DNA from: Planctomycetota bacterium
Lineage (GTDB): Bacteria > Planctomycetota > UBA1135 > GCA-002748355
Reading direction: 5' to 3'
Assembly (NCBI GenBank): GCA_002685965.1
Contig: NYZE01000080.1
Coordinates: 12,464 to 76,463 of the forward strand
DNA: 64,000 nt
The first letter of the stretch is position 1, and every line of letters starts with the position of its first letter. The position numbers and the translations under genes were made by a program. Below, piece after piece: positions 1 through 62,273 of this stretch. The notes beneath the pieces were generated by a model. The model saw nothing but the letters and a program-made list of their open reading frames with translations, did not search any database and was not told the origin of the DNA.

Positions 1-761
1 GTCTCGGCCGGCAGCACCTTCGTGCCAGGCTCGTAGGTGGTCTCTTCTCCGCCCGGGTCGTGGTAGGTGATCCGAATATGGGGGTTGGCGACCGCTGTCT
101 GTTTCAGGTACTCGTCCACTGAGCGCATGCCGCGCCGAAATTCGGCCGCCATGTCGATCTCCACGCGCGTGCCATGCTTCTTGTCCCACTCACGCTCTTC
201 GTCAGTGTACTCGGGCTTGTTCTTCGTCGTGTTGAGGCGCACCTCGAAGTAGTGCGCCTTGGATCGCGGTCCGGTGCGCGACGTGATGCGCACCGAGTTA
301 CCCGTCGTCAATTGTCCGTACATCCCCGCCGCCGAGACGCCGATGCCCTGCTGGCCGCGGCTCTGCTTGAGGCGATGGAACTTCGAACCGTAGAGCAGTT
401 TGCCGAAGATGAGCGGGATCTGTTGCTTGACGATGCCAGGACCGTTGTCCTCGACGATCACCGTGAAGCGGTCTTCGTGCTTCGGGATGGGACGGATCTC
501 GACGATGAGTTCCGGCGCGATCCCGGCCTCCTCGCAAGCGTCGAGGCTGTTGTCCACGGCTTCCTTGACGCCGGTCAGGAGCGCCTTGCGTGGGTTGTCG
601 AAGCCGAGCAAGTGGCGGTTCTTGGTGAAGAACTCCGAGACCGAGATCTCGCGCTGAGTCAAGGCCAACGCTTCGGCCGAGCCTTTGCGCGCGCGCTTGC
701 GGCTGGTGTTCACCGTCTTTCTGCGTCGGCCGCTGCCCTTCGCGGTCGCGAAGAGATCCAT
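1..761 (-). CDS. top6B: DNA topoisomerase VI subunit B, N-terminal GHKL ATPase region (partial; 3' end lies beyond the window start)
   Basis: Absent from the ORF track because its stop is outside the window. My reverse-strand translation from the ATG at 761 reads [15 protein letters not shown]...[42 protein letters not shown]...[50 protein letters not shown]. These are Bergerat-fold N-box, G1 (EDNGPGI) and G2 (SRGQQGIG) motifs in a Top6B-like arrangement. Confidence 0.85.
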
Positions 762-794
762 CTGTCCGTTCTTGCCGCCATCCACTGTCAATGC

Positions 795-1559: not shown

Positions 1560-1723
1560 AGCTGACGGCGGCTGCCTCTGCGAGGCCCTTACTGGGCGGG
1601 TTTCACGGCATTGGCGCGGGCCATCTCCTGCCAACGCTGCCGGCTGTCCTGGCCGCGCGCATGGCCAGAAAGGGTAGACTTGAAGGAGCCGTCCCACCGG
1701 ACCTCCAACGCCAGAGTCCGATC

Positions 1724-4700
1724 ATGATGCGTGCACGCTTCCTTGCCGTCCTGGTGCCGCTCGTATGTGCTTCCTGCGGGAGCGGCATACTAGGAGGCGT
1801 TCTGCTCGGCAATCGCGGTGGTGGCGGCGGCGGCAGCGAGAGCCAACAGCCGAGCATCACGCTGGATCCGGCCGCTTTGCCACTCATCGCCGTGCAGTTT
1901 CCGACGACCTATCTTCCGTCCGTCAGAGTGCGGGTCCGCAACGTTGCCATCGACCTGCTCAAGCAAGAGCCGTTCGTTACCGTCAAGGTGAATGAGCACG
2001 ATGTCGCTGGTGGCACAGGGCCCGCGATCCTGTTGGGCGACACGCTGATCTTCGATCAGGTGGTCGACTACAAGGTCGCCGCGCTGTTTGCGGACAAGCC
2101 GTACAGGGATTTCCAGGTGTCCTTCTCGGTTGGCATCCGCGAGCCCAACGATCCGACCACCAAGGACGATGACGTCATCATCACGAAGAACGTCGCGCCC
2201 CCGGCTCGGTTGCAGTTTCTGCGCCCGCCTTTGATCACCGAACCGGTGGAAGAGAAGATCTTCGTCTCAGCGGCGGGCACGGACCGCATCCAGTTCGCGG
2301 TCAAGTTCCTGCGCGCGGACTCCCGGTCAGACGTCGACTTCTTCGTCGTGCAACGCGACTTCACGGTCAAGAGTGACAAGCCAGACGCCCTTCGGCCAGT
2401 TCCGCTGACCGGTGTCGACGTCACCAAGAAGGTTAACTCTACCGAGACGACCTGGCTCGTGTCCGGGGTAGTGCCCGCAGCGCGCTTCCCGTCGCGCGAC
2501 TTCATCTTGCTGGTCGATCACCAGGGCGGCAATGCGCTGCAAACCGATAGGGACTGGCCGGCGGTACCGCCGCCACAGGTCGTTTATGAGCCCAAGATCG
2601 TGCGTTGGACTGCGGGTCCGACACCGACTCTTGGCGGGTCGCTGGCTGCGATCGAGGGTTTTGCTCTGATCCCGGTCAAGAACGACACCGGTCAGATCGA
2701 GTACCTGTTCGACGCGATTGACCGGATCACGATCACCAGGAACGGGCGTTCCGTGGACGTCGCCAAGGAAGCGATCCGCCGGGATCTGTCGGGCGAGCAA
2801 CGCCTCGTCTTCCTGATGCCGCCCTCGCCCGACGGCCTTCCCGGCAAGGCGTCCATAGAGCTGGCGCTGTTGCTCGTGGACGGGACCCCGGTCAGCAGCC
2901 GGGTTGGGGCGGAAGAAACAGGGTCCGTGCGCTATGGCGTGCCGACGCCCGTGCTGGGGCCGCTCACGAGCCTCTTGCCGGAAGAGGCAGTCGACGTGCG
3001 CAGCGGCTGGTTCTTCTCGGACGATCTACCGGGTCAGGATCTCGCCCTGCTAACGCAGGTCGGTGAGGTCGCCGGACTGGCGCTGATGAGGCGCAACGGT
3101 CTTGGCTTGTTCCGCACCGCTGGACAGCCGATCACGACGCGTGTCGCCGGATACGAAGCCGGCCATGCACCGTTTGCTTTGCTGAGCGGGCAGACGGACG
3201 GAGTGGGTTTTGACGATTTGTTCGTCGTCGGCGGCGCCGAGCCGCCCAGCACCAGCGTCGGGAGCCATGCGTTACTCACGGCGACCGCCGACCTCGCCGA
3301 GCCGTTCACGCTGATTCGATCCACGTATGAGTTCCGGGGAATCAACGTCGACGCCTCCGCAGCCGACTTCGACGAGGACGGCAAGATGGATGCTGTGGTG
3401 CTGCCCGACGGGCAGGCTCCCGCGCCATCGCCAGATATATGGCTGTCGATCGCGGATCAGCCGCGCCGCGTCGATGTCACTGTGCCGACCGGGATTGGCG
3501 GCCGTCGGGTACATGCGAACGACTTCGACGGCGATGGCCACGCCGATATCGCGGTGGCGATGGATGTGGCGCCGTTCCGAGTCTACGTGGCATTCGGTGA
3601 TGGCCGTGGTGGCTTCAATCGCAGCCAAATCGTGAGCTATGCCGATGTGAAACCCGTGTCGCGAGGACTGACGGGCCTCGTGTCGTACGGCGATGGGCCA
3701 CTCACCAAGTACCGCCATCTCTGTCTCTTGTCCTCAGCCACGGTCGGGCCGAAGCAACATCCAGCGCTCGTCCCGATCCTCTTCAACCCGGCGAGTCGAA
3801 AGTTCATCGACGCGAGTGCGAACGACGTGCTCTTGCTGACAGATGTTGAGGGCGTCTTCACGCTCGGGGCAACGATGGACCTCGATGCGAACGGTGTCGA
3901 CGAGCTCGTCGTTGCCATACCGCGTGTGACCGGGTTCCTGCCGCTCACGGCGTTTCTGCTGCAGCGCGGCAAGCCGCTCGAACTCGAGGGCTTCTTCGGC
4001 CCGGACGATGGCCTCGAACAAGTCAAGGGGCTGCGCCAGGTCATTCTCGAGCGGAGAAGCGTGGGGCCGAACCTGGTCGGGCTCTTGGTCCTGCACACGG
4101 AGGACATTGGCGGGAACAAGGTCCCGGCGGTCTCCGTTCTGCCGCGGACGCGTAATGGTCTCACGCCGCGCAACTTGAGACTGGACCAGTCCAAGATCCC
4201 CGAAGGCGTTGCGATCGGCAACTTCGATGCGGACGCGGTCCAGGGTGACTGCGCGACTGCCCAGGCCGATGGTATTCGGATCCATCGCGCGTTTGCTCCG
4301 GCGCTGCACGAGCCGAAACCGAGCTTTGTCGCGTCCAACCCGGTGCCCGGCACCTTGGTGTCACTGCCGTTGCTTCCGACGGGCGACGGGATCTGCTGGC
4401 TTGAACGTGACGGTCGCCTTGCCGTGCGGCATCCGAACGCGACGAAGATCGCATACAGTTCAGACCTGCGGTCCTACCTTGCGGGCAACAGGGGCGCGGC
4501 CGTCGATGACCGTTCGAGGGTCTTTGTCCGCAACGTCGACTCGGACGGCCTCGTCGATCTGTGCATCACCCTGAAGGTGCAGCACAAGGACGAACGTTTT
4601 GCGGTCCTTTATCTACCCGGCAAGTCGGTCGCCGCCGGTGAGCTACCGTTCGTGCTGCCGAAGGCCGGGCTACTGGTCGACGCCGAAGCGGCCGCGTTCT

Positions 4701-5302
4701 CGGTGGGCAATCTGCTCAGTCACGATGCTCATGATGATCCTGGGATCGAGATGGTCTACGCCGTGCATGACCAGTTTAGGTTCGTCTGGATCGATGTCCT
4801 GACCAACGGCGTGTTCGAGTCGACAGCGCCACTCGGGGTCCTGGCGCCGGTCCACGTCGATCCGTCGGTCATGTCACCGGTCATGGCCGACTTGGACCAG
4901 GACGGAACTGAGGATCTGGCCTTCTTGGTGCCCAATGCCCGTCGCGTGAGGGTGCTGTTCAATCGCATTCGGCGCATCGGGCCGCGCTCCTACCAAGGCG
5001 CTCTGGTGTCCTTCCTCGGGCCGACGCTGTCGTATGCCGGGACGGCCCTGGGTCTCGTCGCGGCCGACATGAACGGCAATACGCTGCCTGACCTGGCGGT
5101 GGTCGGCACGGTATTGCGCAACAAGAGCAACGAGGGGTCGGTGTGCTTGTTCCGCAACCTCGGCCGGGGCTCGTTCGGGGAGTGCTATCTGTTCCCCAGC
5201 TTCAACTTCGGTTCCGAGCAGAAGGCGTTTGCAGTCGGCGATCTCGATGGCAATGGGATGAGCGATGTCATTCTGGGCCGCAACGTGTTGTTGAACCGCT
5301 GA
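1724..5302 (+). CDS. Very large FG-GAP/VCBS-repeat lipoprotein
   Basis: Lies in ORF 1661..5302. The ATG at 1724 gives MMRARFLAVLVPLVCASCGSG, a lipoprotein-type signal with a Cys, followed by a Gly-rich linker (GNRGGGGGGSES). There are several Ca-binding FG-GAP-like motifs: DFDEDGKMDAVV, NDFDGDGHADIAV, DLDANGVDELVV, DLDQDGTEDLAF, ADMNGNTLPDLAVV, GDLDGNGMSDVILG. Confidence 0.8.
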   Translation: MMRARFLAVLVPLVCASCGSGILGGVLLGNRGGGGGGSESQQPSITLDPAALPLIAVQFPTTYLPSVRVRVRNVAIDLLKQEPFVTVKVNEHDVAGGTGPAILLGDTLIFDQVVDYKVAALFADKPYRDFQVSFSVGIREPNDPTTKDDDVIITKNVAPPARLQFLRPPLITEPVEEKIFVSAAGTDRIQFAVKFLRADSRSDVDFFVVQRDFTVKSDKPDALRPVPLTGVDVTKKVNSTETTWLVSGVVPAARFPSRDFILLVDHQGGNALQTDRDWPAVPPPQVVYEPKIVRWTAGPTPTLGGSLAAIEGFALIPVKNDTGQIEYLFDAIDRITITRNGRSVDVAKEAIRRDLSGEQRLVFLMPPSPDGLPGKASIELALLLVDGTPVSSRVGAEETGSVRYGVPTPVLGPLTSLLPEEAVDVRSGWFFSDDLPGQDLALLTQVGEVAGLALMRRNGLGLFRTAGQPITTRVAGYEAGHAPFALLSGQTDGVGFDDLFVVGGAEPPSTSVGSHALLTATADLAEPFTLIRSTYEFRGINVDASAADFDEDGKMDAVVLPDGQAPAPSPDIWLSIADQPRRVDVTVPTGIGGRRVHANDFDGDGHADIAVAMDVAPFRVYVAFGDGRGGFNRSQIVSYADVKPVSRGLTGLVSYGDGPLTKYRHLCLLSSATVGPKQHPALVPILFNPASRKFIDASANDVLLLTDVEGVFTLGATMDLDANGVDELVVAIPRVTGFLPLTAFLLQRGKPLELEGFFGPDDGLEQVKGLRQVILERRSVGPNLVGLLVLHTEDIGGNKVPAVSVLPRTRNGLTPRNLRLDQSKIPEGVAIGNFDADAVQGDCATAQADGIRIHRAFAPALHEPKPSFVASNPVPGTLVSLPLLPTGDGICWLERDGRLAVRHPNATKIAYSSDLRSYLAGNRGAAVDDRSRVFVRNVDSDGLVDLCITLKVQHKDERFAVLYLPGKSVAAGELPFVLPKAGLLVDAEAAAFSVGNLLSHDAHDDPGIEMVYAVHDQFRFVWIDVLTNGVFESTAPLGVLAPVHVDPSVMSPVMADLDQDGTEDLAFLVPNARRVRVLFNRIRRIGPRSYQGALVSFLGPTLSYAGTALGLVAADMNGNTLPDLAVVGTVLRNKSNEGSVCLFRNLGRGSFGECYLFPSFNFGSEQKAFAVGDLDGNGMSDVILGRNVLLNR

Positions 5303-5572
5303 GCCTCACACGCGCCACCAGGCGTCGAATGTACCCGGCACACCTTGCACGCGGCACGTGGCCACTCCGCCTCCATCGGCCGCCTGCACTCGTCGCAGCA
5401 GCGATGCTCGCCCGAACGGAGTCAGTAGGTCCTTGGGCGATGCGTGTTCCGGCCACTCTTGAGGCAAACCTGGGGTAGGACGAAGCCTCCCTGGCTCCCA
5501 CCCTCAGAGGGATGTCAGCTGGGTCGTGCTCGCCCGGGGTAAGGTCGCGTGCTTCGGGAGGACCATCACGAC

Positions 5573-5839
5573 ATGAATTTTGAAGGCATCGCGCTCTTCC
5601 TTGCTGCGATTGGCGCCTTGTGTGTGGCCATCTGGGGCCACCTCTCGAAGCAGCGATCCGCGTTTGTCGGCGTGATCGCTGCGGCGTTGGCTGTCCTGGC
5701 GGCTTGCGGAGCCTGGTACGCCTGGACTGAATCACAGTCGATGCCCTGGACGGTTGGCTATGGAGTGGTTGCGGTGATCGGCGTCACCTCGGCCATGCGT
5801 CAGTGCGTGGGCTGCCGCTCGTCCAGGAAGGACCCCTAG
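5573..5839 (+). CDS. Small hypothetical membrane protein (about 3 predicted TM helices)
   Basis: Lies in ORF 5549..5839. The ATG at 5573 is preceded by GGGAGG about 12 nt upstream. The sequence is hydrophobic (MNFEGIALFLAAIGALCVAIWG..., VGVIAAALAVLAACGAWYAW, VGYGVVAVIGV). I recognise no family. Confidence 0.45.
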   Translation: MNFEGIALFLAAIGALCVAIWGHLSKQRSAFVGVIAAALAVLAACGAWYAWTESQSMPWTVGYGVVAVIGVTSAMRQCVGCRSSRKDP

Positions 5840-5948
5840 GGTTGTGCCGATCGCCGCGTCGGCCCTACCAGTGGTCTGCGCACTGGCGCGAGAAGATCGA
5901 CGGGGACGACGCCTAGAGCGGATCGCGCCCATGAAGCTGGGAGTAGAT

Positions 5949-6548
5949 CTAGAGGCTGCCTGCGTGGTTCGTGAGATAGTCCTTCACGCCCTCGTCGCTC
6001 GGGGCCATGCCGGCCTTGCCGGTCGCCCAGCCTGCGGGGCAGACCTCGCCGTGCTCCTTGAAGAACTGCACACCATCGATCGCCCTCAAGAGCTCGTCGA
6101 TGTCGCGTCCGAGGGGCAGGTTGTTGACGACCGCGTGCCAGCAGATGCCGTCCGGGTCGATGAGGTAGGTGCCGCGCGCAGAGAAGCCTGATCCCTCGTG
6201 GACCACGTCGTAGTCCTTGGACATCTGCTTCGTCGTGTCGGCGATGAGGGGATACCCGACCGGACCGATGCCGCCATCATTGATGGCGGTCTCCCGCCAG
6301 CGGGCGTGGGTCTCAGCGTCATCCATGGAAACGCCCAAAACTTGGACGCCTCGCTTTTCGAACTCACCCATGCGGTGGTCGAAAGCGATGAGCTCGGACG
6401 GTCAGACGAAGGTGAAGTCCTTCGGGTAGAAGAAGAGCGCCACATACTGGCCGGAGTAGTCAGACAGGCTCACATCTTGCGTGCTGCCGTCAGCCATCAC
6501 GGCCGGCGCAGTGAAGGCGGGCGCCGCGTTGCCGATGAAGTTGGTCAT
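5949..6548 (-). CDS. Typical 2-Cys peroxiredoxin (AhpC/Prx1 family) with in-frame TGA at the peroxidatic Cys position; probable selenocysteine-containing Prx
   Basis: The ORF track shows only the C-terminal 140 aa (5949..6371), which ends in ...[10 protein letters not shown], the resolving Cys. Reading upstream in the same frame from the ATG at 6548 gives [75 protein letters not shown]. The TGA (6404..6402, codon 49) sits exactly where the FTFVCPTE motif has its catalytic Cys. The total is 199 codons, a normal Prx length. Confidence 0.75.
6351..6388 (-). promoter_or_regulatory. Candidate bacterial SECIS hairpin downstream of the Prx UGA
   Basis: The mRNA reads UCGCUUUCGACCACC-GCAUG-GGUGAGUUCGAAAAGCGA. 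It forms a 10-bp lower stem (one bulged A) and a 5-bp upper stem (one bulged A) with the apical loop GCAUG. The hairpin begins 13 nt after the UGA. The apical loop starts with G and lies about 29-33 nt after the UGA. I folded this by eye only. Confidence 0.45.
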
Positions 6549-6864
6549 TTGAGGTTTCAGTCCTGTGTTCGACGAGGATCAGAAACTACCCCAGAGGAGG
6601 CCAATGGAGAAGAAGTAGGAGATCAAGAGATGTCGTGCATCCTCCAACCCAGCCTCAGGTGCTCGCCGACGGTGCCGCTCGCTTGCGCTAGGTGTTTGGG
6701 AGCTGTGAACTGTATCGCGCTGCCGTTCCGACCTACGTCGGCGGTGACCTCGCTTATGCCGTCGTCCGCAAGGACGAGCAACCTTGCCATGAACCGCGAC
6801 GAGAGGTTAGTCGTCGCTACTACAACCCGTCCGTGCATGCTGCGGCATTCGCGTTGCCAACCTG

Positions 6865-8670
6865 GTGGAACATACCCTTTACCTTCTCGTCCTGATCGTC
6901 GCCGCCGGCGTCGGCGCGCAATGGCTCGCGTCGCGGCTGCGCGTGCCGCCGCTGCTCTTGTTGCTCATGACGGGGCTGGTGCTCGGCAAGCCCGTGCTCG
7001 GATGGATCGATCCCGAGCAGTTGTTCGTCGGGGTGCGTTCCGTCGATGGCAAGACGACCGGTGTCGATCTGCTGCGACCGCTCGTGGCGATGGCGGTTGC
7101 GTTGGTGCTGTTCGAGGGCGGGCTGACGCTGGAGATCAAGGAGGCGCGGCAGGTCGGCCGCACGTTGCGGCGTCTACTGGTATCGGGACTCTGCCTCGGC
7201 TTCGGGCTGACGACGCTGGCCGGCGTCTGGCTCGGGGGGCTCGACCTGGCGACCGCCGCAACCCTCGGTGCGATCCTCGTCGTGACCGGGCCGACCGTCA
7301 TCCTGCCGATGCTGCGCTCGGCCCGCATCGCGCTGCGCCCGGCCACGCTGCTCAAGTGGGAGGGCATCGTCAACGATCCTCTCGGGGCCCTGTTGGCCCT
7401 GTTCGTCGTCAAGGCGGCCGAGATCGTTGGCACGGGCCAAGGGACGTTCTCGGGCCTGGCGATGACGTTCGTCTGGACCGGCAGCGTGTCGATCGTGGTC
7501 GGTGTTGCCGCTGGATGGGCGCTCGGTAAAGCACTCGACCGTGGCCTGATCGCCGAGAACCTCAAGAGTCCAGTCATCGTTGCTTCGGTCCTCGTCGTAT
7601 TCGCGGTCGCCGAGCATCTTCACCACGAGATGGGCCTAATCAGCGTGACCGTGATGGGGGTCGTGCTCGCCAACGTCGAGAACCACAGCCTCGAGGATAT
7701 CCGGCGCTTCAAGGAGCAGATCACGACCCTGCTGATCGCCGTGCTCTTCATCGTGCTGTCGGCGCGGCTGGAGCCCGAGCAGATCAGCAGCGTGGTTGGC
7801 AGGCCACTGATCCTCATCGCGATCATTGTGTTCGTCGTGCGACCTCTCGTCGTGTTCGTGGCTGCCATCGGCTCCAAGTTGCCGTGGCGGGAGAGGCTGC
7901 TCGTCGGATGGATCGCGCCGCGCGGCGTCGTCGCTGCGGCAGTCGCCGCGACCTTCGCCCCCGGCCTGGAGGTGGCCGGTGCGAAGAGCGCGGGCGAACT
8001 CGTGCCAATCGTGTTCGGTGTCATCGTTGCGACCGTGGTCCTGCACGGGCTGACGATACGGCCGTTGGCGCGGCGGCTCGGACTGGCCGCGACGGACGGA
8101 AACGGCGTGCTCATCGTCGGTGCCTCGGTGTGGGTCGTGACGCTGGCGCAGGCACTCGCCAAGGCTGGTGCCTACGTGGTGCTCGCCGACACGCGCTACC
8201 GCCGGGTGTCTCAGGCGAGACAGGAGGGCGTCGAGGTGCACTATGGCGATGTTCTGGCCGAGGAAGCTGCGATGGAGTTGCCGATGGAGCGTGTGTCCTG
8301 GCTCTTGGCGGCCACCGACGACGATCACTACAACGCACTCGCATGCCTGCGCTTCGGCCCTGAGCTCGGCCGCGAAGCGATGTTCCAGCTCACGCCGCAC
8401 AGGGGTGAGCCGGGGACCGAGACCCAGGTGCACATGGCTGGTCAGCGGCCTTGGGGCGACGACGGCACCTACCGCACGATCACGGCACGCTTCTGGAAGG
8501 GTGCGACGTTCAAGGTCACCAACCTGAGCGACGAGTTCGACGGCGCGGCGTTCCGTGACAAGAACCCCGACGCCCTCGTGCTCTGCTGGGTGCACCAGGA
8601 TCACCTGCGCTTCGCTGACGCCGCTGACGCGATGCCGCCGGACGGTGCGCGAGTTGTCTACCTGGACTAG
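6865..8670 (+). CDS. CPA1-family cation/proton antiporter (Na+/H+ exchanger) with C-terminal RCK/TrkA-N-like domain
   Basis: 601-aa ORF with a GTG start. The N-terminal ~400 aa is polytopic and typical of Na_H_Exchanger proteins (MEHTLYLLVLIVAAGVGAQWLASRLRVPPLLLLLMTGLVLG...IAPRGVVAAAVA). The C-terminal part is a Rossmann-like segment (GVLIVGASVWVVTLAQALAKAGAYVVLADTRYRRVSQARQEGVEVHYGD). Confidence 0.85.
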   Translation: MEHTLYLLVLIVAAGVGAQWLASRLRVPPLLLLLMTGLVLGKPVLGWIDPEQLFVGVRSVDGKTTGVDLLRPLVAMAVALVLFEGGLTLEIKEARQVGRTLRRLLVSGLCLGFGLTTLAGVWLGGLDLATAATLGAILVVTGPTVILPMLRSARIALRPATLLKWEGIVNDPLGALLALFVVKAAEIVGTGQGTFSGLAMTFVWTGSVSIVVGVAAGWALGKALDRGLIAENLKSPVIVASVLVVFAVAEHLHHEMGLISVTVMGVVLANVENHSLEDIRRFKEQITTLLIAVLFIVLSARLEPEQISSVVGRPLILIAIIVFVVRPLVVFVAAIGSKLPWRERLLVGWIAPRGVVAAAVAATFAPGLEVAGAKSAGELVPIVFGVIVATVVLHGLTIRPLARRLGLAATDGNGVLIVGASVWVVTLAQALAKAGAYVVLADTRYRRVSQARQEGVEVHYGDVLAEEAAMELPMERVSWLLAATDDDHYNALACLRFGPELGREAMFQLTPHRGEPGTETQVHMAGQRPWGDDGTYRTITARFWKGATFKVTNLSDEFDGAAFRDKNPDALVLCWVHQDHLRFADAADAMPPDGARVVYLD

Positions 8671-8687
8671 GGGGGCGACCCGATGAG

Positions 8688-11198
8688 CTACTGGATCTTG
8701 AAGCTCTGCGAGTTGCCGAGTGTCAAGGTGGCACCGGAGACGAGCAGCTGTTGCCAATGGAGCTGCAATCCGATCAGCCCAGGGTCGTTCGGGATCGGCT
8801 CGTCGATCGTCAGTCGCCTGGCGGTGCCGTAGGCGGTGGCTGACAACACGAATAGGGTATTCGGGTCCAAGAGCAGCGTGCCGATACCCGGGACCTTCAC
8901 GTTGGCGGCGCCGCCTGACAGCAGCGGGACTGCCACCGCACCGGGTGCGCCGTGGTATGCAAAGCGTGCGGTGCTGCCGCGGTGCGCGCCGCCGAGCAGG
9001 GTCAGTGACGCGGGTGTGACGATGCCCTTGACCTCGAGGTCGTCGACGCAGGCTTCGACCAGCGATGCGGACACCGTGTCCTGAGCGTTGAAGCGGAAGC
9101 GCATCTCGTTCGTCATGGTGCCGGGAAGGTTGACTTCGATCTGTTCCCAACCGGACGTGTGGTTGCCACGGCGATAGATCTCCGTCCAGCTGCTGCCGCC
9201 GTCTTTGCTGAGTTCGACGGTGAACGGATCGCCCACAACCGATTCGGAGTAGTAGAGCCAGATCGACAGCGCTGGCAGTGCGACGTGGCGCAGATCCATG
9301 ATCGGCGACAGCAAAGACGTCTTGCCGTTGTCGACGTCGTAGTTGCCAACGCTGTTGCCCGCCCGCGCCTCCGTGACCCAGCACATGGTTCCGGTCGGGC
9401 TGTGGTCGGCACCGGGCTGGTAGTCACGACTCTGGTAGACGGTGCGCTGCGGCACCGCACGCTCGAACTTGCCGGTGGTTGCGGTGTCTGCGGTCGAGCG
9501 GCGGAAGCCCAGGTCCTTCTCGAAGTCCGACCCGACGAGTAGTACCGGCTCCGCGAACGGAAGGTCGATGGTGACCTTGTCGACAATGGTCTCGTAGGCG
9601 ATCGACAGCTCGACGCGCGCGAACGCTGCCTTGTAGTTCTGATCGACCTTGAGCGACAACGGGCTGGCGTTGTTGTTCGCCGAAGCGAACTTCGCGATCG
9701 TGCCGAAATTGTGCGTGCCCTTGGTGATGGTCACGCCACTCGACAGCGACTTGAGCGAGGCCGTGACCGGCGTCAACGACGCGGCCGCGCCGTTGTTGGC
9801 CAGCGTGATGCGCAGCAAGCCCGTCTCACCAGGATCGACCTTGCCGTTGTTGTTGCCGCCCGGGCCTTCGCTCAGCGCCGACTTGTCGACGGTGACGTTG
9901 GCACCGGCGAGCACGGCGAACTGCTGGAACATGTGCTGCTGCCGGTTCGAGATCCGCACCTGGTTGGTCGGGTTTGGCCAGAAACCACCCTCGCTCGAAG
10001 TGCCGAGTTCCGGCGTATAGCCGTACATGCCGTGCGCTACGTGGTAGTGGTCGAGTGCGGTACCCGCTGCGATGTAGAGCGTCGTGCTCGCCGGTCCGAC
10101 AACCATCGCCGGGTTCTTCGCGAGCGCCCGCGCGTTGATCGTCTGGTATTCGCTGTGGTTCGGGGGTGGGCCGTTCTTGTAGCCCCACGGATAGAGCAGC
10201 AGCTCGCCACTCGTGTGGCACGAGTTGCCAATCACGAACTTTCGCGTCGTGATGAACGCCTCGAACGCCGCGATTTCCGGTTCCGAAAGCGGGCTCGTGC
10301 CACGGTAGGTGCTGGAGCTTGGGTTCGTGCTGTTGCCGCCGTTTGGGGCGGTCCAGCCCGTTGTCCAGTTGCGGTTCAGGTCGACACCGTAGACGCCGCC
10401 GCCGTTGTTGCGCCGGTTCTTGCGCCACATGCCACCGCCGTTGGGGCTGTTGCGGCGGTTGTACTCGTAACCGTCTGGGTTGACGCACGGCACGAAGTAG
10501 CACTCGCGGTTGTTGACGATGTAGGTAGCGACCGTGTCCTTGCCGTAGTTCGACAACAACCAGTCCATGAACACGAGCGTCGTCGTGCAACTGACTGGCT
10601 CGCGCGCGTGGTGCAGCGCGTCGTAGAGCACTTCTGGCTCGAGTTCGTCCTTGTTGACGTTGTCGGAGATCTTGACCATCCAGAGGTCACGACCCTCGAT
10701 CGACTTGCCGATGCTGACCTTGGTCGTGCAGATGGCGGGGTGGTCCTTGGCGAACTTGTCGAGGTGGGCGACGATCTGTACCCACGTGTAGTGGCCCCCC
10801 ATGCCGCCCTGTCCGACGGCGGGCGTCAGGTCGTTCGGGAACTTAAACTTTGATAGCTCCTTGCCGATCGTGTCCTCGAGGTTGCGCACGGCCACCGTGT
10901 AGTCGAGACCGGCAGCCTTGATCTTGTCGATGTCCGAGTCTTCGGCGATGACTTCGACCTCGCGCGCCGGAATCTCGAGCGCGTTGCATGCTGCCAGGTC
11001 CAGGTCGAGTGCCAGCAGCTTGTCCAGCGTTCGCGCGTCTTTGACGATCACCTTGACCAGGTGGTGATCCGGCTCGGCGGCCGGAGGAGTCGTTGCCACG
11101 GCGTTGATCGGAGTGACTGCTTGGAAGCAGAGGGGCAGTAGGAGCTGGGCGAACATGCAGGCCTCGCTAACGGGACGCAGGGAAGAAGCTCGACGCAT
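8688..11198 (-). CDS. Secreted zinc carboxypeptidase, M14 family, with MAM-like and C-terminal beta-rich domains
   Basis: 836-aa ORF. M14 motifs are present: ALHHAREPVS (HxxE zinc ligands), VNPDGYEY, DLNRNW. The N-terminus has a signal-like segment (MFAQLLLPLCFQAVTPINAVA), so the start could be 11198 or the ATG at 11156. A MAM-like region (...MCWVTEARAGNSVGNYDVDNGKTSLLSPIMDL...VDDLEVKG) is followed by a ~110-aa tail. Confidence 0.85.
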   Translation of the reverse strand: MRRASSLRPVSEACMFAQLLLPLCFQAVTPINAVATTPPAAEPDHHLVKVIVKDARTLDKLLALDLDLAACNALEIPAREVEVIAEDSDIDKIKAAGLDYTVAVRNLEDTIGKELSKFKFPNDLTPAVGQGGMGGHYTWVQIVAHLDKFAKDHPAICTTKVSIGKSIEGRDLWMVKISDNVNKDELEPEVLYDALHHAREPVSCTTTLVFMDWLLSNYGKDTVATYIVNNRECYFVPCVNPDGYEYNRRNSPNGGGMWRKNRRNNGGGVYGVDLNRNWTTGWTAPNGGNSTNPSSSTYRGTSPLSEPEIAAFEAFITTRKFVIGNSCHTSGELLLYPWGYKNGPPPNHSEYQTINARALAKNPAMVVGPASTTLYIAAGTALDHYHVAHGMYGYTPELGTSSEGGFWPNPTNQVRISNRQQHMFQQFAVLAGANVTVDKSALSEGPGGNNNGKVDPGETGLLRITLANNGAAASLTPVTASLKSLSSGVTITKGTHNFGTIAKFASANNNASPLSLKVDQNYKAAFARVELSIAYETIVDKVTIDLPFAEPVLLVGSDFEKDLGFRRSTADTATTGKFERAVPQRTVYQSRDYQPGADHSPTGTMCWVTEARAGNSVGNYDVDNGKTSLLSPIMDLRHVALPALSIWLYYSESVVGDPFTVELSKDGGSSWTEIYRRGNHTSGWEQIEVNLPGTMTNEMRFRFNAQDTVSASLVEACVDDLEVKGIVTPASLTLLGGAHRGSTARFAYHGAPGAVAVPLLSGGAANVKVPGIGTLLLDPNTLFVLSATAYGTARRLTIDEPIPNDPGLIGLQLHWQQLLVSGATLTLGNSQSFKIQ

Positions 11199-11458: not shown

Positions 11459-13303
11459 ATGCGGGCCGTCGCACTTGTGCTGTTGCTCGTCGCCGGTGTC
11501 GGTGCACAGACGACCTTTCGTTGGGTCGAACGCAGCCACTGGTGGCTGGACACCCATCCGGTGCGGCTCCGCGTCGGCAGCGCAAAGGCCACTCTCGTGC
11601 TGCTCGGGTTGCCCCGCCTGGTTTGGTCGCTCGGTGCGCACGACATCACCGCTCACGGTACTGCAGCGGGGATCGAATGCCGCGTCCGTGCATTGCCGAC
11701 CGAGGACCTTCTGGTGTTCGACGTGCGCTCCAGGGATCCACTGCTGCTGCGCGTCAAACTTCCCGGTGTCTCCTCGGGTGGCCCCGACCTCGCCAATGCG
11801 CTCTTTGGTGGGCGTCAAATGGCTCTCTTGGCGGTCGGTGGTGGGCTCGTTGTGGGGGCCGATGCTTGCCGTATCCAGCTGCCGGCTGGCGGGGGCACGC
11901 TGGTCTTCTGTCTCGGTCGCGCCGCGCGCGATAGCCAGCAAGTCGCTGCCTTGCGGCTCGGGGCGCGTCATCGCCTGGAGCTGGCATCCGTGCAGGACGC
12001 GGCCTGGTTGCGACAGGGCCTCTTGCTGCACTCGCCATCGGCGCCGATCAACAAGATGTTCCGGCGTGCCCTGCTCCAGTTGCGCGCCCAGATCGCGCCG
12101 AATGGCCGAGTGTTCGACGCCAAGCGGGGCGCCGGCTTCGGGGTAGCGATCCGGCCAACGGTCTCCAGTGCCGCGGCCTTGTGGGTTAGCGGGCACCGCG
12201 CGCTTGCACGGAGGATCGTCGCGGCCTTGCGTGATGAGACCATGCCGCAGCTCCTGGCCGCGCACACCCGCCAGTTGCGCCGACTCGGCTGGTTGCCGGC
12301 TGCCCCACCCTTCAAGGACGACCCCGTAATCGGCGACCTTGCCGGGCTGCCTCTACACGAGTGGTTGACGACCAGACAAGGTCTCGGCCACCTCCCTGAG
12401 GCCCCGGAAGCGTGGGTGCACGCCGGAACCGGACGCCTGTGCTTCCTGCCGGGTCAACCACGTCCGACTGCCTGGCACCTCGTAATCGGCACCGCGTGGT
12501 TACCGCTCCCGGTCGAGTGGCGAGTCGCTGCCGCTCGAACGTGGCCCGACGCGCTCCGCGAGCTACTGCAACCCGATGGCACGTTCGCGCTGATGGGTCG
12601 GTTTGGCACCGACCGCGCGTCGCCGCCCTCGCCCCTTGCCACTTGTTTGCTCGCTGAGTGGCGCCTGGCACGTGGCGACCGCGATGGCGCTGAACGTGCG
12701 CTACGCGCCGTCGCCGTTCGTACATCAGGCTGGCTTGCGCACTCTTGGCGGCGTGCGGATGACCAATCGGCTGCTGCTGCTGCTCGATTCGTGCTCACCG
12801 CAATCGGTCTCACCCTGCGTTCCGGCGCAGGCGCCTGGCAAGTTGGGCTGCCCGAGAGTTGGGACCGTGTGACCCTGGCGGGTTATCCGCTCGGCGAGGC
12901 GCGCGCGGAGGTGACGCTGGAGCGGGAACGAGGCTCGCTCCGGATGTGCGTCCGCGGTGGGCGCCGCCTGCCTGCGTTCCGCTGTGTCGCCTCCGGCGGT
13001 GCGGTTGATGTCCCACAGGGTGGAACGGCCGTGGCGGGCGTGTCAGTGGGTGAACGCTTGCTGACGCTACCCGAACGGCTCCCCGACACCGTGCGCTGCT
13101 ACACGAAGGCGGGCGAGGAGTACCGCGTCCAGCTGGCCGAGACGCTGGCAATGATCAGGCGCCTTCGTCGGAAGCAGACCGCCCCGCGCGTGGTACGCGT
13201 GCGCAAGTCGCTGTCGCCACAAGAGGAGGCCAGGGCGATCGACTCTTTGCGTGGGCTCAGTCGCTTCATCGAGCGACAGTTCGAAGCACGAAACCGGAAG
13301 TAG
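11459..13303 (+). CDS. Secreted hypothetical protein (possibly a six-hairpin glycosidase-like fold; unassigned)
   Basis: 614-aa ORF with a clear signal peptide (MRAVALVLLLVAGVGAQT). The frame is long and uninterrupted, with coding-like composition. The C-terminal beta-sandwich-like segment and basic tail were not assignable by eye. Confidence 0.6.
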   Translation: MRAVALVLLLVAGVGAQTTFRWVERSHWWLDTHPVRLRVGSAKATLVLLGLPRLVWSLGAHDITAHGTAAGIECRVRALPTEDLLVFDVRSRDPLLLRVKLPGVSSGGPDLANALFGGRQMALLAVGGGLVVGADACRIQLPAGGGTLVFCLGRAARDSQQVAALRLGARHRLELASVQDAAWLRQGLLLHSPSAPINKMFRRALLQLRAQIAPNGRVFDAKRGAGFGVAIRPTVSSAAALWVSGHRALARRIVAALRDETMPQLLAAHTRQLRRLGWLPAAPPFKDDPVIGDLAGLPLHEWLTTRQGLGHLPEAPEAWVHAGTGRLCFLPGQPRPTAWHLVIGTAWLPLPVEWRVAAARTWPDALRELLQPDGTFALMGRFGTDRASPPSPLATCLLAEWRLARGDRDGAERALRAVAVRTSGWLAHSWRRADDQSAAAAARFVLTAIGLTLRSGAGAWQVGLPESWDRVTLAGYPLGEARAEVTLERERGSLRMCVRGGRRLPAFRCVASGGAVDVPQGGTAVAGVSVGERLLTLPERLPDTVRCYTKAGEEYRVQLAETLAMIRRLRRKQTAPRVVRVRKSLSPQEEARAIDSLRGLSRFIERQFEARNRK

Positions 13304-20666: not shown

Positions 20667-21771
20667 ATGTCTCTTGCCGACTTTCAAGACCGCTTTGGGC
20701 TCGCCACGACTCGTCTGGCGCAGTTGAAGGTGGGGCTTTGACTTCGACGGCAATCTGAAAGGCCTCGCCGAGGCCGAAGAGAGCATGCTCAAGCCCGGCT
20801 TCTGGGGTGACCAGGGAGCCGCCGGCAAGGTGGTCGCGGCCCAAAAGCGCGCACGTGCCATCGTGGGTCCGATGCGTCATGCGGACAGTACGATGGAGGA
20901 TCTTGAGGTCTTGCTCGAGCTTGCCGAGGAAGACGAGGCTGCGGTGACAGCGGACATCGAGGAGGCGCTGTCAGCGCTGGAGGAAGGTCTCGACAAGGCC
21001 GAGTTCCAGTTGATGCTCGGTGGCGAGCACGATCACCGCAACGCGATCCTCAACCTGCAGGCGGGTGCAGGTGGTGTCGATGCGTGCGACTGGGCCGAGA
21101 TGCTACTCAGGATGTACCTGCGCTGGGCCGAGCGCATGGACTTCGATTTCGAGGAGATCGACCTGCAAAGGGCGGAGGAAGCCGGCATCCGTTCGGCTTC
21201 CGTGCTGATCAAGGGTTCCTACGCCTACGGCTGGCTCAAGGCCGAGCAGGGGGTGCACCGGCTCGTGCGCATCTCGCCGTTCGATGCACAGAACCGGCGG
21301 CAAACGAGTTTTGCCTCGGCGGAAGTCGTGCCCGAGTTCGACGACGACATCGAGATCGAGATCCCGGAGAAGGAGCTCCGGGTCGATACGTTCCGCGCGA
21401 GCGGCGCAGGCGGTCAGCATGTCAACAAGACTGAGTCAGCGGTTCGATTCACGCACCTCCCGACTGGGATAGTCGTGAGCTGCCAAAACGAGCGTAGTCA
21501 GCACAAGAACCGTGCCACGGCGATGAAGGTCCTGCGGGCCAAGCTCTATCAACTCGAACTCGCCAAACGCGAGGATGCCCTGAAGGGGTTCTATGGCGAT
21601 CGCGGGTCGATCGCGTGGGGCAACCAAATCCGTTCGTACGTTTTGCAGCCGTACCAGATGGTCAAAGACCTACGCACCACTCACCAGAACGGCAATGCGC
21701 AGGCTGTGCTCGATGGCAACCTGACGCCGTTCATGGAAGCGTGGCTCAAGATGCGCAGAGGGGACAAGTAG
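20667..21771 (+). CDS. prfB: Peptide chain release factor 2, expressed via programmed +1 frameshift at codon 25
   Basis: Frame 0 runs from the ATG at 20667 and encodes MSLADFQDRFGLATTRLAQLKVGL, followed by TGA at 20739..20741. The +1 frame from 20740 continues DFDGNLKGLAEAEESMLKPGFWGD... to 21771. RF2 hallmarks are present: SPF (RISPFDAQNRRQTSFA) and GGQ (SGAGGQHVNKTESAV). Confidence 0.92.
20728..20742 (+). promoter_or_regulatory. RF2 autoregulatory +1 frameshift site (SD-like element + CTT TGA C)
   Basis: The sequence AGGTGGGG-CTT-TGA-C matches the classical prfB shift cassette: an internal Shine-Dalgarno-like element, the slippery CUU, and the weak UGA-C stop. Confidence 0.85.
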
Positions 21772-23397: not shown

Positions 23398-23799
23398 ATG
23401 GACATCGCGAAGGCTGTCGAAGAGATCCGCCTGGGCGCGTCGATCCACGACCTGTTCAGGGATTTCCTGGCGTCGCAGCTGTCGGTCTCCACCGGTGAGC
23501 TGCGGCGCACACTCAGTGACCTCACGGTGGAGCGTCAGCGCCAGCTCAACGACGAGGCGCTGGGCTTTACAGGCAGCCTCTGTCGTCAACTCGGCGAGCG
23601 TTTCGACGGCGACCCGCGCATGTGCCACGTGCTCCTCGAGTGGCTGCGCACACACAAGGACTACGAAGCGTTCGACGTACTGCTGACGAGCTTCGACTTT
23701 CCCGCACGTTTGCAGGTACTGGCGGAGGGCAGGCGATTGTTTCCGGCAACGCTCACGTCGCACTGGCGAGACGGTCCGCAGCCAGGCGCGCGCTACTGA
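23398..23799 (+). CDS. Hypothetical protein (133 aa), immediately downstream of purH
   Basis: The ATG is 3 nt after the purH stop. The frame is open with coding-like composition, and I recognise no motif. The 3' end overlaps the convergent etfA stop by 7 nt. Confidence 0.45.
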   Translation: MDIAKAVEEIRLGASIHDLFRDFLASQLSVSTGELRRTLSDLTVERQRQLNDEALGFTGSLCRQLGERFDGDPRMCHVLLEWLRTHKDYEAFDVLLTSFDFPARLQVLAEGRRLFPATLTSHWRDGPQPGARY

Positions 23800-34531: not shown

Positions 34532-34949
34532 TACCGGCACGCCATGCGCCACGCAGCAGCGTGCGTCTCTAACGGCGTCGCAACGTGCCAAGCGTGGCGA
34601 TCGGCGCGGTCGCTCCACCGCGGATCACATGGATGATGGGCCGTGTCGGTCCAGGACGGGTCGTTGTGCCAGGGGTTTTCGTCTCACGCATGGTTGGTCC
34701 TTGGTGATGGGCCAGGGAATACTCCCTACCGTATATACAGTTCGACTGGAAAACAACGCCTTCCGCGGCCCTGTTTGAAGTGGTGCTGAAGACTGCGAGT
34801 CTGGGAGCGGCCAACCGGGCCAGATCCTGTATGAGAGGCACTAGCGTCCGCGGTTGTCACGCCGGATTTACCTCGGTTTACTCCCAACCCGGCGGCGGGC
34901 GCCGTATTCAAGGACGTCGCCAACAAATAGGTTCGAAGGAGAGACCAAG

Positions 34950-35870
34950 ATGCGCGTGTTGCTACCCCTTGCCACGGTCCTGGCGCTCACGAGCGTCGCG
35001 TCCGCCCAAATCGTGATCACCGAGACCGAGACCCCCAAGCCCGGGACCGAGAAGGGCCAAGACGGGGCAGCTGCAAACTTGTTCTACAAGGCCTTCTGGC
35101 TCGATGTCGGCGACCGAAAGTTTGACCAGGCGACGGTGCTCTACAAGCAGTTCCTCGCCGCATCTCCGACGTCCAAGAACGCACCTCGCGCTGCCCGTCA
35201 GCTCGTCAACCTGCTCTATCGCACGGAGAAGCTGGACGAAGCAAAGGCAGCCGAGACGAAGTTCAAGGACCTGTTGGCCAAGGCGCCCAGCCGTCGTGGT
35301 GGTAACCGTGGTGGCGAGCGTGGTGGTAACCGTGGTGGTAACCGTGGTGGTAACCGTGGTGGCGAGCGTGGTGGTCGTATGGGCCGTGGCGGTGACCGCA
35401 GTGGTCGCGGCGGTGCCGGCCAGGTCGACCAGGCTCGTGTCCAGCGCTACGAGCGCATGATCAGCAACCTCGACAAGCGCCTCGCCGAGCAGAAAGAAGC
35501 CGGCAACGAGGAGCAGGTCAAGCGTCTGACGGCGCAGCTGGACCGGATCAAGAAGCAGCTCGCAACCGCCAAGCAGGGCGGCGGTGGTCAGCAAGGCCGT
35601 GGTGGTCAAGGTGAAGGCGGCCGTCAGAGTCGTCGCGGCAGCCGGCGCGGGGGCTTCGGTAGCTCCCTGGCTGAAATGACCAAGGAAGAGGCCGTCGAGT
35701 CGGTCGAGAACATGGGTCGTTTCCTGGACCGGATGCTTGAGCGCCTTGACGAAGACGCGGCCAAGAAGCTCGAGAGCACCTACAAGAAGCTCAAAGAGCT
35801 CGTCAACGCTGGAAAGCTCGAAGAAGCGCAGAAGGTGCGCTCGGAGATGTTCCAGCGCCGCCGTCGCTAG
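34950..35870 (+). CDS. Secreted protein with TPR-like N-terminal region, RGG/RGGN repeat block and coiled-coil C-terminus
   Basis: Lies in ORF 34854..35870. The ATG at 34950 is preceded by GAAGGAGAG and gives the signal peptide MRVLLPLATVLALTSVASAQ. The central block is RRGGNRGGERGGNRGGNRGGNRGGERGGRMGRGGDRSGRGGAG. A second Gly/Arg/Gln block (QGGGGQQGRGGQGEGGRQSRRGSRRGG) follows. Confidence 0.7.
   Translation: MRVLLPLATVLALTSVASAQIVITETETPKPGTEKGQDGAAANLFYKAFWLDVGDRKFDQATVLYKQFLAASPTSKNAPRAARQLVNLLYRTEKLDEAKAAETKFKDLLAKAPSRRGGNRGGERGGNRGGNRGGNRGGERGGRMGRGGDRSGRGGAGQVDQARVQRYERMISNLDKRLAEQKEAGNEEQVKRLTAQLDRIKKQLATAKQGGGGQQGRGGQGEGGRQSRRGSRRGGFGSSLAEMTKEEAVESVENMGRFLDRMLERLDEDAAKKLESTYKKLKELVNAGKLEEAQKVRSEMFQRRRR
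35295..35378 (+). repeat. In-frame 12-nt tandem repeat, 7 units (CGTGGTGGTAAC / CGTGGTGGCGAG variants)
   Basis: Direct reading gives CGTGGTGGTAAC CGTGGTGGCGAG CGTGGTGGTAAC CGTGGTGGTAAC CGTGGTGGTAAC CGTGGTGGCGAG CGTGGTGGTCGT, which encodes RGGN/RGGE/RGGR. Confidence 0.9.
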
Positions 35871-41142: not shown

Positions 41143-42510
41143 TCAGACTGTGCGCGAGAACATCGGCCCACCCTGGGCTCGCTGCTTGGCCAGATAGGCA
41201 TCGAAGGGCATGGCCGCGTTGCGCACGAATAGCTGGCCGAGTTCTGTGACGCGAATGCCGTTGTCGTCGAGTTCGACCACGCCGTCGTTGGCGAGAGGCT
41301 CCAGCTGCACCAGGGCATCGGCGTAGCGTTTGCGGAAGGCAGCAGCGCCACCGTGCGCGTCGTAGTCGAGGCGGAACCGACACATCAGGTCGAGGATGAT
41401 GCGACGCCGCGCCGTGTCGTCCGCAGAACGCGTGAGCCCGCGGTCGATCGGCAGTCGACCCGTGTCGATCGCCTCGCTCCAGTCCTTGAGGCCCTTGTGG
41501 TTCTGTGCGAATGCCGCGTTGATCTCGGAGATCGAAGACGCGCCGAACGAGAGCATGTCTTCGGCCGGGTGCACTGCATAGCCCATGAAGTTTCGGTGTA
41601 GCGTTCCATCAGCGAGCGCACGCATCATCGCATCTTGCGGTAGAGCAAAGTGGTCCATGCCGATCGCTTCGTAGCCGGCCTCGCGAAATTTCCGGTACGC
41701 CGTCAGGTACAGCTCGATCTTGTCGTGGCCACGAGGCAACGCGTCCTCGGGCAGGGCACGTTGGTGCTTCTTGAGCCACGGCACGTGGGCGTATCCGTAG
41801 CAGGCGATGCGCTCCGGCCGCAGTTTGAGCACTTGGTCGACGCTGTGACCGAACGACTCGGGCGTTTGATGTGGCAACCCATAGATCAGGTCGAGGTTGA
41901 CCGACAAGAAGCCGAGTGCACGCGCGTGATCGACGAGCAGACGCGTCGCCTCGACACTCTGGATGCGGTGCACGGTCTCCTGCACCTTCGCGTCGAAGTC
42001 CTGCACGCCCATGCTGATGCGGTTGAAGCCGCAGGTGCGCAGCACGTCGAGTTGCTCGATGGTCGTGACGGCAGGGTCGATCTCGATGCTCACCTCGGCG
42101 TTCTCGTCGAGCGGGAACAGTGCAACGAGGCCCGTGAACAATCGCTCGAGTTCGGTCGGCGACAGAAACGTCGGCGTGCCGCCGCCCCAGTGGTGCTGGA
42201 CGACCGGTCGCGCGCTGCCCAACGCATCGTGGGCCAGCCGTGCTTCTTGCAGGACGCGTGACACATAATCGTGCATCCGGTCCCGCTGGCGCGTGATGAC
42301 GACGCTGCATCCACAGTAGAGGCAAAGCCGTTCACAGAAAGGCACGTGCACGTACATCGACAGCCGCTCGGCGCTCGAGCCGGCCCGGATCAGATGTCTG
42401 CGGTAGTCGGCCTCGCCGAAGTCGTTCGACCACGAGGGAGCCGTGGGGTAGCTGGTGTAGCGCGGACCCGGAGTGTCGTAACGGGCGATGAGCTCGCGCG
42501 AGACTTTCAC
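41143..42510 (-). CDS. hemN: Oxygen-independent coproporphyrinogen III oxidase (radical SAM)
   Basis: The GTG start at 42510 overlaps the hemE stop (GTGA). The sequence is VKVSRELIARYDTPGPRYTSYPTAPSW...LSMYVHVPFCERLCLYCGC (CxxxCxxC)...GGGTPT.... Confidence 0.88.
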   Translation of the reverse strand: MKVSRELIARYDTPGPRYTSYPTAPSWSNDFGEADYRRHLIRAGSSAERLSMYVHVPFCERLCLYCGCSVVITRQRDRMHDYVSRVLQEARLAHDALGSARPVVQHHWGGGTPTFLSPTELERLFTGLVALFPLDENAEVSIEIDPAVTTIEQLDVLRTCGFNRISMGVQDFDAKVQETVHRIQSVEATRLLVDHARALGFLSVNLDLIYGLPHQTPESFGHSVDQVLKLRPERIACYGYAHVPWLKKHQRALPEDALPRGHDKIELYLTAYRKFREAGYEAIGMDHFALPQDAMMRALADGTLHRNFMGYAVHPAEDMLSFGASSISEINAAFAQNHKGLKDWSEAIDTGRLPIDRGLTRSADDTARRRIILDLMCRFRLDYDAHGGAAAFRKRYADALVQLEPLANDGVVELDDNGIRVTELGQLFVRNAAMPFDAYLAKQRAQGGPMFSRTV

Positions 42511-50346: not shown

Positions 50347-50862
50347 TTGCTCACTGCACAGGCGGTCTTCTATTACATGGCGGCTGCCAGCGTAGCGAGT
50401 GGGCTACTCGCGGTGACCCGCAGGAACCCGGTCCAGAGCATGCTCTGGGTGCTGGCGCTGTTCCTCCATGTCGCGGGCATCTTCCTGCTGCTGAGCGCGG
50501 AGTTCCTGGCGGCGGTTCAGGTGATCGTCTACGCGGGCGCCATCCTGATCTTCTACCTCTTCGTCGTCATGCTGCTCGACCTCCCGGACGAGGAGGCCAA
50601 GCCGCGTTTCGGGAAGCACTGGCCGTTCGCCGCCTGCGTCGGAGTCGCCACTACGCTGCTGGCCTGGCTCGCTCAGGGCGCGGTCGCGCCGGCGGCAGGA
50701 CGCTTGCCGGACACGGGGGCAGCATTCACGGGCAGCGTCGCCGAGCTCGGCAAGGCGCTCTTCGGACCGTTCGCGTTGCCCTTCGAGCTTGCGTCCCTCG
50801 TGCTGCTCGCGGCGATCGTCGGCGCCGTCGTGCTCGCCAGAAAGAGGGGAGAACGCACATGA
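50347..50862 (+). CDS. nuoJ: NADH-quinone oxidoreductase subunit J
   Basis: 171 aa with a TTG start. The sequence is VFYYMAAASVASGLLAVTRRNPVQSMLWVLALFLHVAGIFLLLSAEFLAAVQVIVYAGAILIFYLFVVMLL. Confidence 0.88.
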   Translation: MLTAQAVFYYMAAASVASGLLAVTRRNPVQSMLWVLALFLHVAGIFLLLSAEFLAAVQVIVYAGAILIFYLFVVMLLDLPDEEAKPRFGKHWPFAACVGVATTLLAWLAQGAVAPAAGRLPDTGAAFTGSVAELGKALFGPFALPFELASLVLLAAIVGAVVLARKRGERT

Positions 50863-57557: not shown

Positions 57558-57597
57558 ACAACTCCCTGTACATTGCTGCGATCGAGGTCATGGGCTC

Positions 57598-57951: not shown

Positions 57952-57971
57952 CGTCCGGAGAGCATCGAAGC

Positions 57972-59080: not shown

Positions 59081-59097
59081 CCCGGATCGAGGTGCCC

Positions 59098-60474: not shown

Positions 60475-62260
<1,786 letters not shown>

Positions 62261-62273
<13 letters not shown>

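Follow-up and report, generated by a model that had tools for sequence, protein, structure and literature searches.

Does the peroxiredoxin locus described here hold a gene broken by a stop codon, two short genes, or one intact gene for a selenoprotein? The locus lies within a 64,000-nucleotide stretch of a Planctomycetota bacterium (GTDB lineage UBA1135; GCA-002748355), taken from GenBank assembly GCA_002685965.1, contig NYZE01000080.1, positions 12,464 to 76,463 of the forward strand. The whole stretch is referred to as the window, and its own numbering is used throughout. An earlier note on this DNA had proposed a selenocysteine (Sec) peroxiredoxin whose UGA codon stands in place of the catalytic cysteine codon. 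The locus is very probably a single gene for a 199-residue typical 2-Cys peroxiredoxin (Prx1/AhpC), with the peroxidatic Sec encoded by the UGA at 6404 to 6402, and the comparative support for that earlier call is, with little doubt, about as strong as sequence data permit.

Reading frame, active site, and codon 49 in related genomes

Translation of the window bears out a frame continuing upstream through the TGA at 6404 to 6402: on the minus strand, 199 codons run from an ATG at 6548 to 6546 to a TAG at 5951 to 5949 (complete gene, 6548 to 5949), and that TGA, codon 49, is the only internal stop. Frame, Pfam domains, Protein Data Bank (PDB) structures, and orthologues all delimit the same gene. 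Within the 32 residues of translated context around it, the TGA occupies the peroxidatic position of the motif P42-x3-T46-x2-U49.

For the domain and structure comparisons, cysteine was substituted at codon 49. The protein belongs to the Pfam family AhpC-TSA (PF00578; 9e-38, 129.4 bits against a cutoff of 26) and carries the C-terminal dimer-interface domain 1-cysPrx_C (PF10417; 40.8 bits, cutoff 21.1). It matches human PRDX2 (1QMV; E = 4e-60 over residues 5 to 195) and aligns end to end with Helicobacter pylori AhpC (1ZOF; E = 7e-59). Codon 49 aligns with the peroxidatic cysteine of FTFVCPTE in both structures and is TGC or TGT in the Cys-form orthologues, so the placement of the UGA exactly at this cysteine is confirmed. 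P42, T46, U49, and R125 align with the active-site residues of PRDX2 and AhpC, giving the PxxxTxxC(U) motif together with its arginine. The resolving cysteine, which had been reported as intact in VCPAGW, is Cys170 (codon 6041 to 6039, minus strand); its EVCPAGW matches the EVCPAGW of both structures.

A standard listing of open reading frames (ORFs) splits this gene into a 48-aa piece (6548 to 6402), called as a separate small ORF from the 48 N-terminal codons at 6548 to 6405, and a 140-aa piece (6371 to 5949, minus strand). The public gene calls do the same, with identical 140-aa and 48-aa fragments deposited separately as “peroxiredoxin” proteins, as expected from the prediction that automated annotation would report a truncated gene. 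The two pieces might be taken at face value, as a 48-residue peptide and an independently initiated 140-residue protein that form a split enzyme or of which the C-terminal piece alone is functional; gene callers report just these two ORFs, and an ATG lies 10 codons past the TGA. Met60, however, is not conserved: 8 of the 13 TGA-type orthologues have I, V, or L there, the next ATG in these is 15 codons on, and callers give 125-aa fragments from Met75. This speaks against separate initiation of a C-terminal protein. The stretch of 10 codons from the TGA to Met60 is conserved as amino acids, although it would be untranslated under such a model, and the C-terminal piece lacks the whole active-site strand with PxxxTxxC/U. 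Two separate products are exceedingly improbable, and the 140-aa fragment is an ORF-calling artefact created by a chance Met60.

The single-gene reading has a practical consequence for annotation, since the gene is held as 48-aa plus 140- or 125-aa “peroxiredoxin” fragments on dozens of contigs and metagenome-assembled genomes (MAGs). Because the database entries are fragmented, a main peroxide-detoxifying enzyme of this marine clade is counted as incomplete or absent.

Among species-representative genomes, a scan recovered 33 related loci, nearly all in Planctomycetota MAGs, and full-length colinear orthologues were found in 28 genomes. Codon 49 is TGA in 13 species-level marine Planctomycetota MAGs (L011 to L018, L021 to L024, and L035), whose proteins are 82 to 89% identical to the window protein; together with the window gene they make up 14 TGA-type sequences. 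The assemblies of these MAGs have the WGS prefixes JAKVCE01, JAKVCD01, JABSRK01, DUDB01, CAYXZD01, CAYXTP01, JAPKBO01, JAPKBY01, JAZALG01, NZBA01, JASLMK01, CAZDQF01, and DASCMO01; Cys-type sisters are JAQWOM01 and CBDFJQ01, the latter a contig of 5.3 Mb. The related gene of L026 (NYSS01) is cut off by the start of its contig before codon 49 and is not counted among the TGA forms. In 16 other orthologues the codon is TGC or TGT. Two of these (L019 with TGC and L020 with TGT) are 84% identical to the window protein, and relatives at 62 to 66% identity all have TGC, including the cultured Saltatorellus ferox Poly30. Alignment at codon 49, which the earlier note had advised, thus yields the Sec/Cys pairing that it anticipated, with some Cys forms as close as 84 to 93%. 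In addition, at least 24 marine metagenome contigs from Tara and other surveys, each assembled independently, bear a 140-aa fragment identical to that of the window, in every case with a 48-aa AhpC-TSA ORF before it.

When the 14 TGA-type genes are compared in pairs, synonymous and nonsynonymous differences are 0.31 and 0.12 in the 48 codons that precede the TGA versus 0.32 and 0.16 in the part that follows it. By this measure both halves of the frame are under the same purifying selection, and the TGA-type orthologues contain no further stops or frameshifts. None of the genes next to the peroxiredoxin gene in the window was found by tblastn within 3 kb of the peroxiredoxin genes of the 82 to 89% identical MAGs (L011 to L024); the neighbors tested were a Na+/H+ exchanger (6865 to 8670), a small membrane ORF (5549 to 5839), and an FG-GAP protein (1661 to 5302). 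The TGA has therefore been kept across genomes that have diverged enough to lose gene order. As a separate observation, the peroxiredoxin gene is far better conserved than the genes surrounding it (window 5400 to 8700 compared with L011 to L024).

These data bear directly on a pseudogene or an assembly or sequencing error, in which a nonsense change from TGC or TGT to TGA would have struck an ordinary Cys-peroxiredoxin. The TGA is one base from either cysteine codon, Cys forms exist at 84 to 93% identity, and Sec machinery was not found in the window. Set against this are the recurrence of the TGA in 13 species-level MAGs and at least 24 independently assembled contigs, the equal purifying selection on both halves with no extra stops or frameshifts, and a covarying hairpin with suppressed synonymous variation that accompanies TGA forms only. 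The comparative data effectively refute a pseudogene or error, and the probability of either is very small.

In a neighbor-joining tree, Sec and Cys forms are interleaved. The interleaving fits either repeated Sec/Cys conversion or gene transfer, and the tree lacks the robustness needed to choose between them. One TGC form, P0005 (loci L164 to L167; L164:3001-3600), is 91% identical in nucleotides to the TGA-type L013 and has downstream genes in common with it (PhoD and GCE_fung). Very close Sec/Cys pairs of this kind, including a TGC convert that bears a SECIS (Sec insertion sequence), are useful for studying Sec gain and loss.

The hairpin downstream of the UGA

The UGA is followed by a hairpin with a core at 6388 to 6351 (minus strand) of 15 bp and an apical loop GCAUG at 6373 to 6369; a weaker lower extension reaches 6395 to 6345. 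The hairpin begins 13 nt past the UGA, and its 5-nt loop, whose first nucleotide is always G, begins 28 nt past it. The position, the spacing, and the G at the start of the loop had all been described correctly from the window alone. The attributes of a SECIS stem-loop, namely a small G-containing apical loop directly downstream of the UGA, covariation, and stability, are all present. The hairpin geometry, the UGA-to-loop distance, and the small loop starting with G match the bacterial SECIS consensus that Zhang and Gladyshev reportedly described in 2005.

The proper null for a hairpin within a coding sequence leaves the peptide unchanged and draws synonymous codons at the frequencies found in the window. 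At -17.2 kcal/mol, the fold of the 38-nt core compares with -10.5 ± 2.1 kcal/mol in 3000 such recodings and is 6.7 kcal/mol more stable; about 0.07% of the recodings fold as well (p about 0.0007). The same hairpin is folded by all TGA-type genes and is absent from Cys forms, with the exception of the convert P0005. The core has an energy between -14.8 and -20.4 kcal/mol in TGA forms and between -6.3 and -14.2 kcal/mol in Cys forms, P0005 again excepted. In P0005 the TGC form retains the hairpin at -15.7 kcal/mol, with its rare GCT and CGA codons, and this hairpin appears to be a relic SECIS left after a recent conversion from Sec to Cys.

Paired cells make up 97% of the 14-sequence alignment and 95% of a wider alignment of 19 sequences. 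The pair 29:39 switches between AU and GC in five sequences, where a His-to-Arg change (CAC to CGC) is matched by a silent change from GGT to GGC, and the pair 30:38 switches from CG to UA in L012. With the wider set, the pairs 24:46, 25:45, and 27:42 also show double changes, giving five compensatory pairs in total among the 19 sequences. The covariation score was reached by none of 500 column shuffles, and structures slid by 1 to 3 columns left only 30 to 52% of cells paired. Codons 54 to 67, which form the hairpin, have a synonymous diversity of 0.13, 2.4-fold lower than the 0.31 to 0.32 of the other codons, and locally rare codons are fixed in the stem (GCT, 11% of Ala codons, and CGA, 10% of Arg codons). 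A covariance model of the hairpin has only one match in the window (95.7 bits), with no second copy; the model also scores Cys forms at 51 to 61 bits versus 95, owing to the shared coding sequence, and is a weak discriminator. The earlier statement that the hairpin is compatible with a bacterial SECIS is upheld, in that it behaves as a conserved and selected RNA structure in the TGA forms only.

Decoding of the UGA and the surroundings of the gene

Several results weigh against Sec insertion at this codon. The hairpin region has a z score of only -1.2 to -1.4 against dinucleotide shuffles, which is not significant, and this weak score is explained by the 64% GC content of the genome; the earlier description of the hairpin as strong consequently holds against synonymous recodings and in relatives but not against shuffles, where the fold is unexceptional. 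Conservation of the hairpin sequence is partly forced by a conserved 14-residue peptide, and the same peptide is also found in Gammaproteobacteria Cys forms (L040 and L043). Rfam gave no SECIS match, whether with the gathering threshold or with a cutoff of E <= 10, which says little because its coverage of bacterial SECIS elements is poor. Genes for selA, selB, and selD are absent among the ~50 Pfam-annotated ORFs of the window, and SelA, SelB, and SelD were not found in the fetched flanks of relatives. The tRNA scans found no tRNA genes in the window and no tRNA-Sec in the flanks of 20 related loci. A second selenoprotein gene was likewise not found in the window or in the flanks of relatives, where only two antisense or edge artefacts appeared. 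For this last search, every gene in the window was scanned for a split at a TGA, and the flanks of relatives were scanned with redox motifs, GC content at third codon positions alone being nondiscriminating (it missed the peroxiredoxin gene); among the window genes, the peroxiredoxin gene alone has an in-frame TGA preceded by sequence that looks coding. Complete Sec machinery is present in some Planctomycetes, namely two Porphyra-associated strains, Gemmata obscuriglobus, and Isosphaera pallida (PMC4807772).

The UGA might also be read through without Sec, by near-cognate insertion of Trp, Cys, or Arg or through local or lineage-wide reassignment, the hairpin then acting as a generic readthrough stimulator. 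Structured RNA 3′ of stop codons can stimulate readthrough in other systems, and no sel genes were found in the window or in the fetched flanks. Reassignment is excluded by the window itself: TGA is the commonest stop (28 of 47 genes), and the gene for release factor 2 (RF2), prfB (20667 to 21771, plus strand; NCBIfam TIGR00020, 3e-145), has the canonical site of programmed +1 frameshifting, in which a short ORF with its ATG at 20667 ends in GGG CUU UGA C at 20733 to 20742 and the +1 frame runs on into an ORF of 328 codons. Since TGA is an ordinary stop in these genes and RF2 has a UGA-dependent frameshift, there is no change in the genetic code. The prfB frameshift confirms that this organism truly uses UGA to stop translation. 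Furthermore, the chemistry of the catalytic position can be carried out by Cys or Sec alone, and only Cys alternates with TGA there. The hairpin geometry, with its loop starting 28 nt from the UGA, fits the bacterial SECIS consensus. Peroxiredoxins with Sec in TxxU are, moreover, already an established selenoprotein family (PMC13188914 and PMC2398784). Readthrough without Sec is very unlikely, and this clade of uncultured marine Planctomycetota probably uses selenocysteine.

If Sec is inserted, the hairpin at 6388 to 6351 would act as a bacterial SECIS when the ribosome meets the UGA. Its apical part would bind SelB-GTP-Sec-tRNA(Sec), and Sec would be inserted in competition with RF2; SelB binding and selenium incorporation are modeled on the established bacterial Sec pathway. 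The conserved end-to-end alignment with PRDX2 and AhpC indicates that the same catalytic cycle is expected, and with Sec in place of Cys, resolution would yield a selenenylsulfide where the Cys enzymes form a disulfide. In the cycle proposed by homology to PRDX2 and AhpC, the U49 selenolate, in an active site with P42, T46, and R125, would reduce peroxide and become a selenenic acid. This would be resolved by Cys170 of the partner subunit to an intersubunit selenenylsulfide, which a thioredoxin-type reductant would reduce, closing the cycle. No AhpF or thioredoxin gene adjoins the peroxiredoxin gene among the neighboring genes of the locus.

Other genes were noted in passing. A topoisomerase VI pair lies a few kb from the peroxiredoxin gene (window 3 to 791, minus strand, and L001:15581-18701). 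Its subunits, B with HATPase_c/Topo-VIb_trans and A with TP6A_N/Toprim domains, adjoin a menaquinone gene of the futalosine pathway (VitK2_biosynth). Topoisomerase VI is uncommon in bacteria. A compact heme biosynthesis cluster (41143 to 48433, minus strand) contains HemN-like, HemE, HemL, HemB, fused HemC-HemD, and HemA genes. After it comes an operon for complex I (nuo; 50347 to 63850, plus strand), in which J-K-L/M/N-type subunits precede A-B-C-D-F-G. Three sizeable plus-strand ORFs have no Pfam match and a good codon-position GC signal (11459 to 13303, 614 aa; 34854 to 35870, 338 aa; and 23398 to 23799, 133 aa).

Known Sec-peroxiredoxins and two architectures

Sec-peroxiredoxins are not a new class, as the earlier note had already acknowledged and as the literature bears out (PMC1088965, PMC2398784, and PMC13188914). 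According to a passage in PMC13188914 citing Sohling et al. (2001), a Sec-peroxiredoxin with TxxU was experimentally verified in Eubacterium acidaminophilum. A genome survey of 2006 listed 12 Sec-peroxiredoxin genes with five inferred changes from Cys to Sec (PMC1794560). Counts from the sea are larger: the Sargasso Sea yielded 43 (PMC1088965) and the Global Ocean Sampling data 253 (PMC2398784), and Sec-peroxiredoxins are among the most abundant marine selenoproteins (PMC2398784 and PMC9402790). The statement that such proteins are known from a few bacteria was therefore right as to their being known and understated as to their number, given these 253 genes and at least 120 TGA-bearing peroxiredoxin genes in a metagenome scan made here. 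Current understanding is not overturned by the window gene, which joins a textbook-listed family abundant in ocean metagenomes.

The metagenome scan, for D-F-T-F-V-TGA-P-x-E, returned these at least 120 genes as loci L044 to L163. Most among the matches listed are ~233 aa long, with Sec near residue 85 and an N-terminal extension, and are 36 to 41% identical to the window protein. Nearly all of these listed ~233-aa forms lack the C-terminal VCP motif, and the group has a short GCGGC-NNNN-GCCGC hairpin. We take them to be the PrxU type modeled by NCBIfam NF040737. The window protein scores 153.2 bits on that model (peroxi_PrxU), below the cutoff of 270, and is therefore not a PrxU equivalog; its best NCBIfam match, PRK15000 “peroxiredoxin C,” is also below cutoff (221 bits versus 301). 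The window gene departs from the PrxU architecture in having 199 aa, Sec at residue 49, a VCP motif, and a longer, unrelated hairpin.

A minority among the matches listed combine Sec with a VCP motif as the window gene does: L120 belongs to the same clade, whereas L163, L075, L058, L078, and L062 come from organisms of 33 to 50% GC. This minority also has a SECIS of the window type, with an invariant UCGCUUU...AAAGCGA lower stem. As judged from the genes compared, there are at least two architectures of Sec-peroxiredoxins, PrxU and Prx1/AhpC, with unrelated SECIS designs. Separately, L088 and L126 are TGA-bearing 2-Cys forms with yet other hairpins.

It is possible, though doubtful, that the Prx1/AhpC type constitutes a distinct selenoprotein lineage apart from PrxU, combining a peroxidatic Sec with a resolving Cys in an intersubunit Se-S cycle. 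Such a lineage would have kept its own long SECIS (UCGCUUU...AAAGCGA) nearly unchanged while spreading, through vertical descent or gene transfer, to aerobic bacteria of the sea with 33 to 64% GC, including the uncultured Planctomycetota clade, where it would have reverted repeatedly to Cys. If this is true, and if no one has yet set the Prx1/AhpC-type subgroup apart, the subgroup would offer a natural system for finding out what Sec gives to a typical 2-Cys peroxiredoxin. One possible benefit, again if true, is protection from hyperoxidation in an oxic and selenium-poor ocean.

The window protein has P42, T46, R125, the resolving Cys in EVCPAGW, and a GGIG motif in common with PRDX2 and H. 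pylori AhpC, and a C-terminal YL with the latter, but differs from both in its predicted Sec, rather than Cys, as the peroxidatic residue. The SECIS of Escherichia coli fdhF, the paradigm of bacterial SECIS elements, bears a likeness to the window hairpin; the latter, however, has no sequence similarity to it, has a longer stem of 15 bp, and has bulges on the 3′ side instead of the 5′ bulged U of fdhF. The Sec-peroxiredoxin family of Zhang and Gladyshev (pfam00578) resembles the window gene in its AhpC/TSA fold, the Sec in T-x-x-U, a downstream hairpin within the gene, marine occurrence, and widespread Cys homologues. A text search found no Planctomycetota named in surveys of this type, and the 2006 survey mentions this barely sampled phylum once. 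Those surveys define the family broadly, whereas the window gene belongs to a Prx1/AhpC-type subgroup with its own putative SECIS. Like PrxU of E. acidaminophilum, the window gene has a UGA-encoded, predicted Sec at the peroxidatic position in a DFTFVUP context, and PrxU (NF040737), which is thioredoxin dependent by annotation, may resemble the window enzyme in this respect as well.

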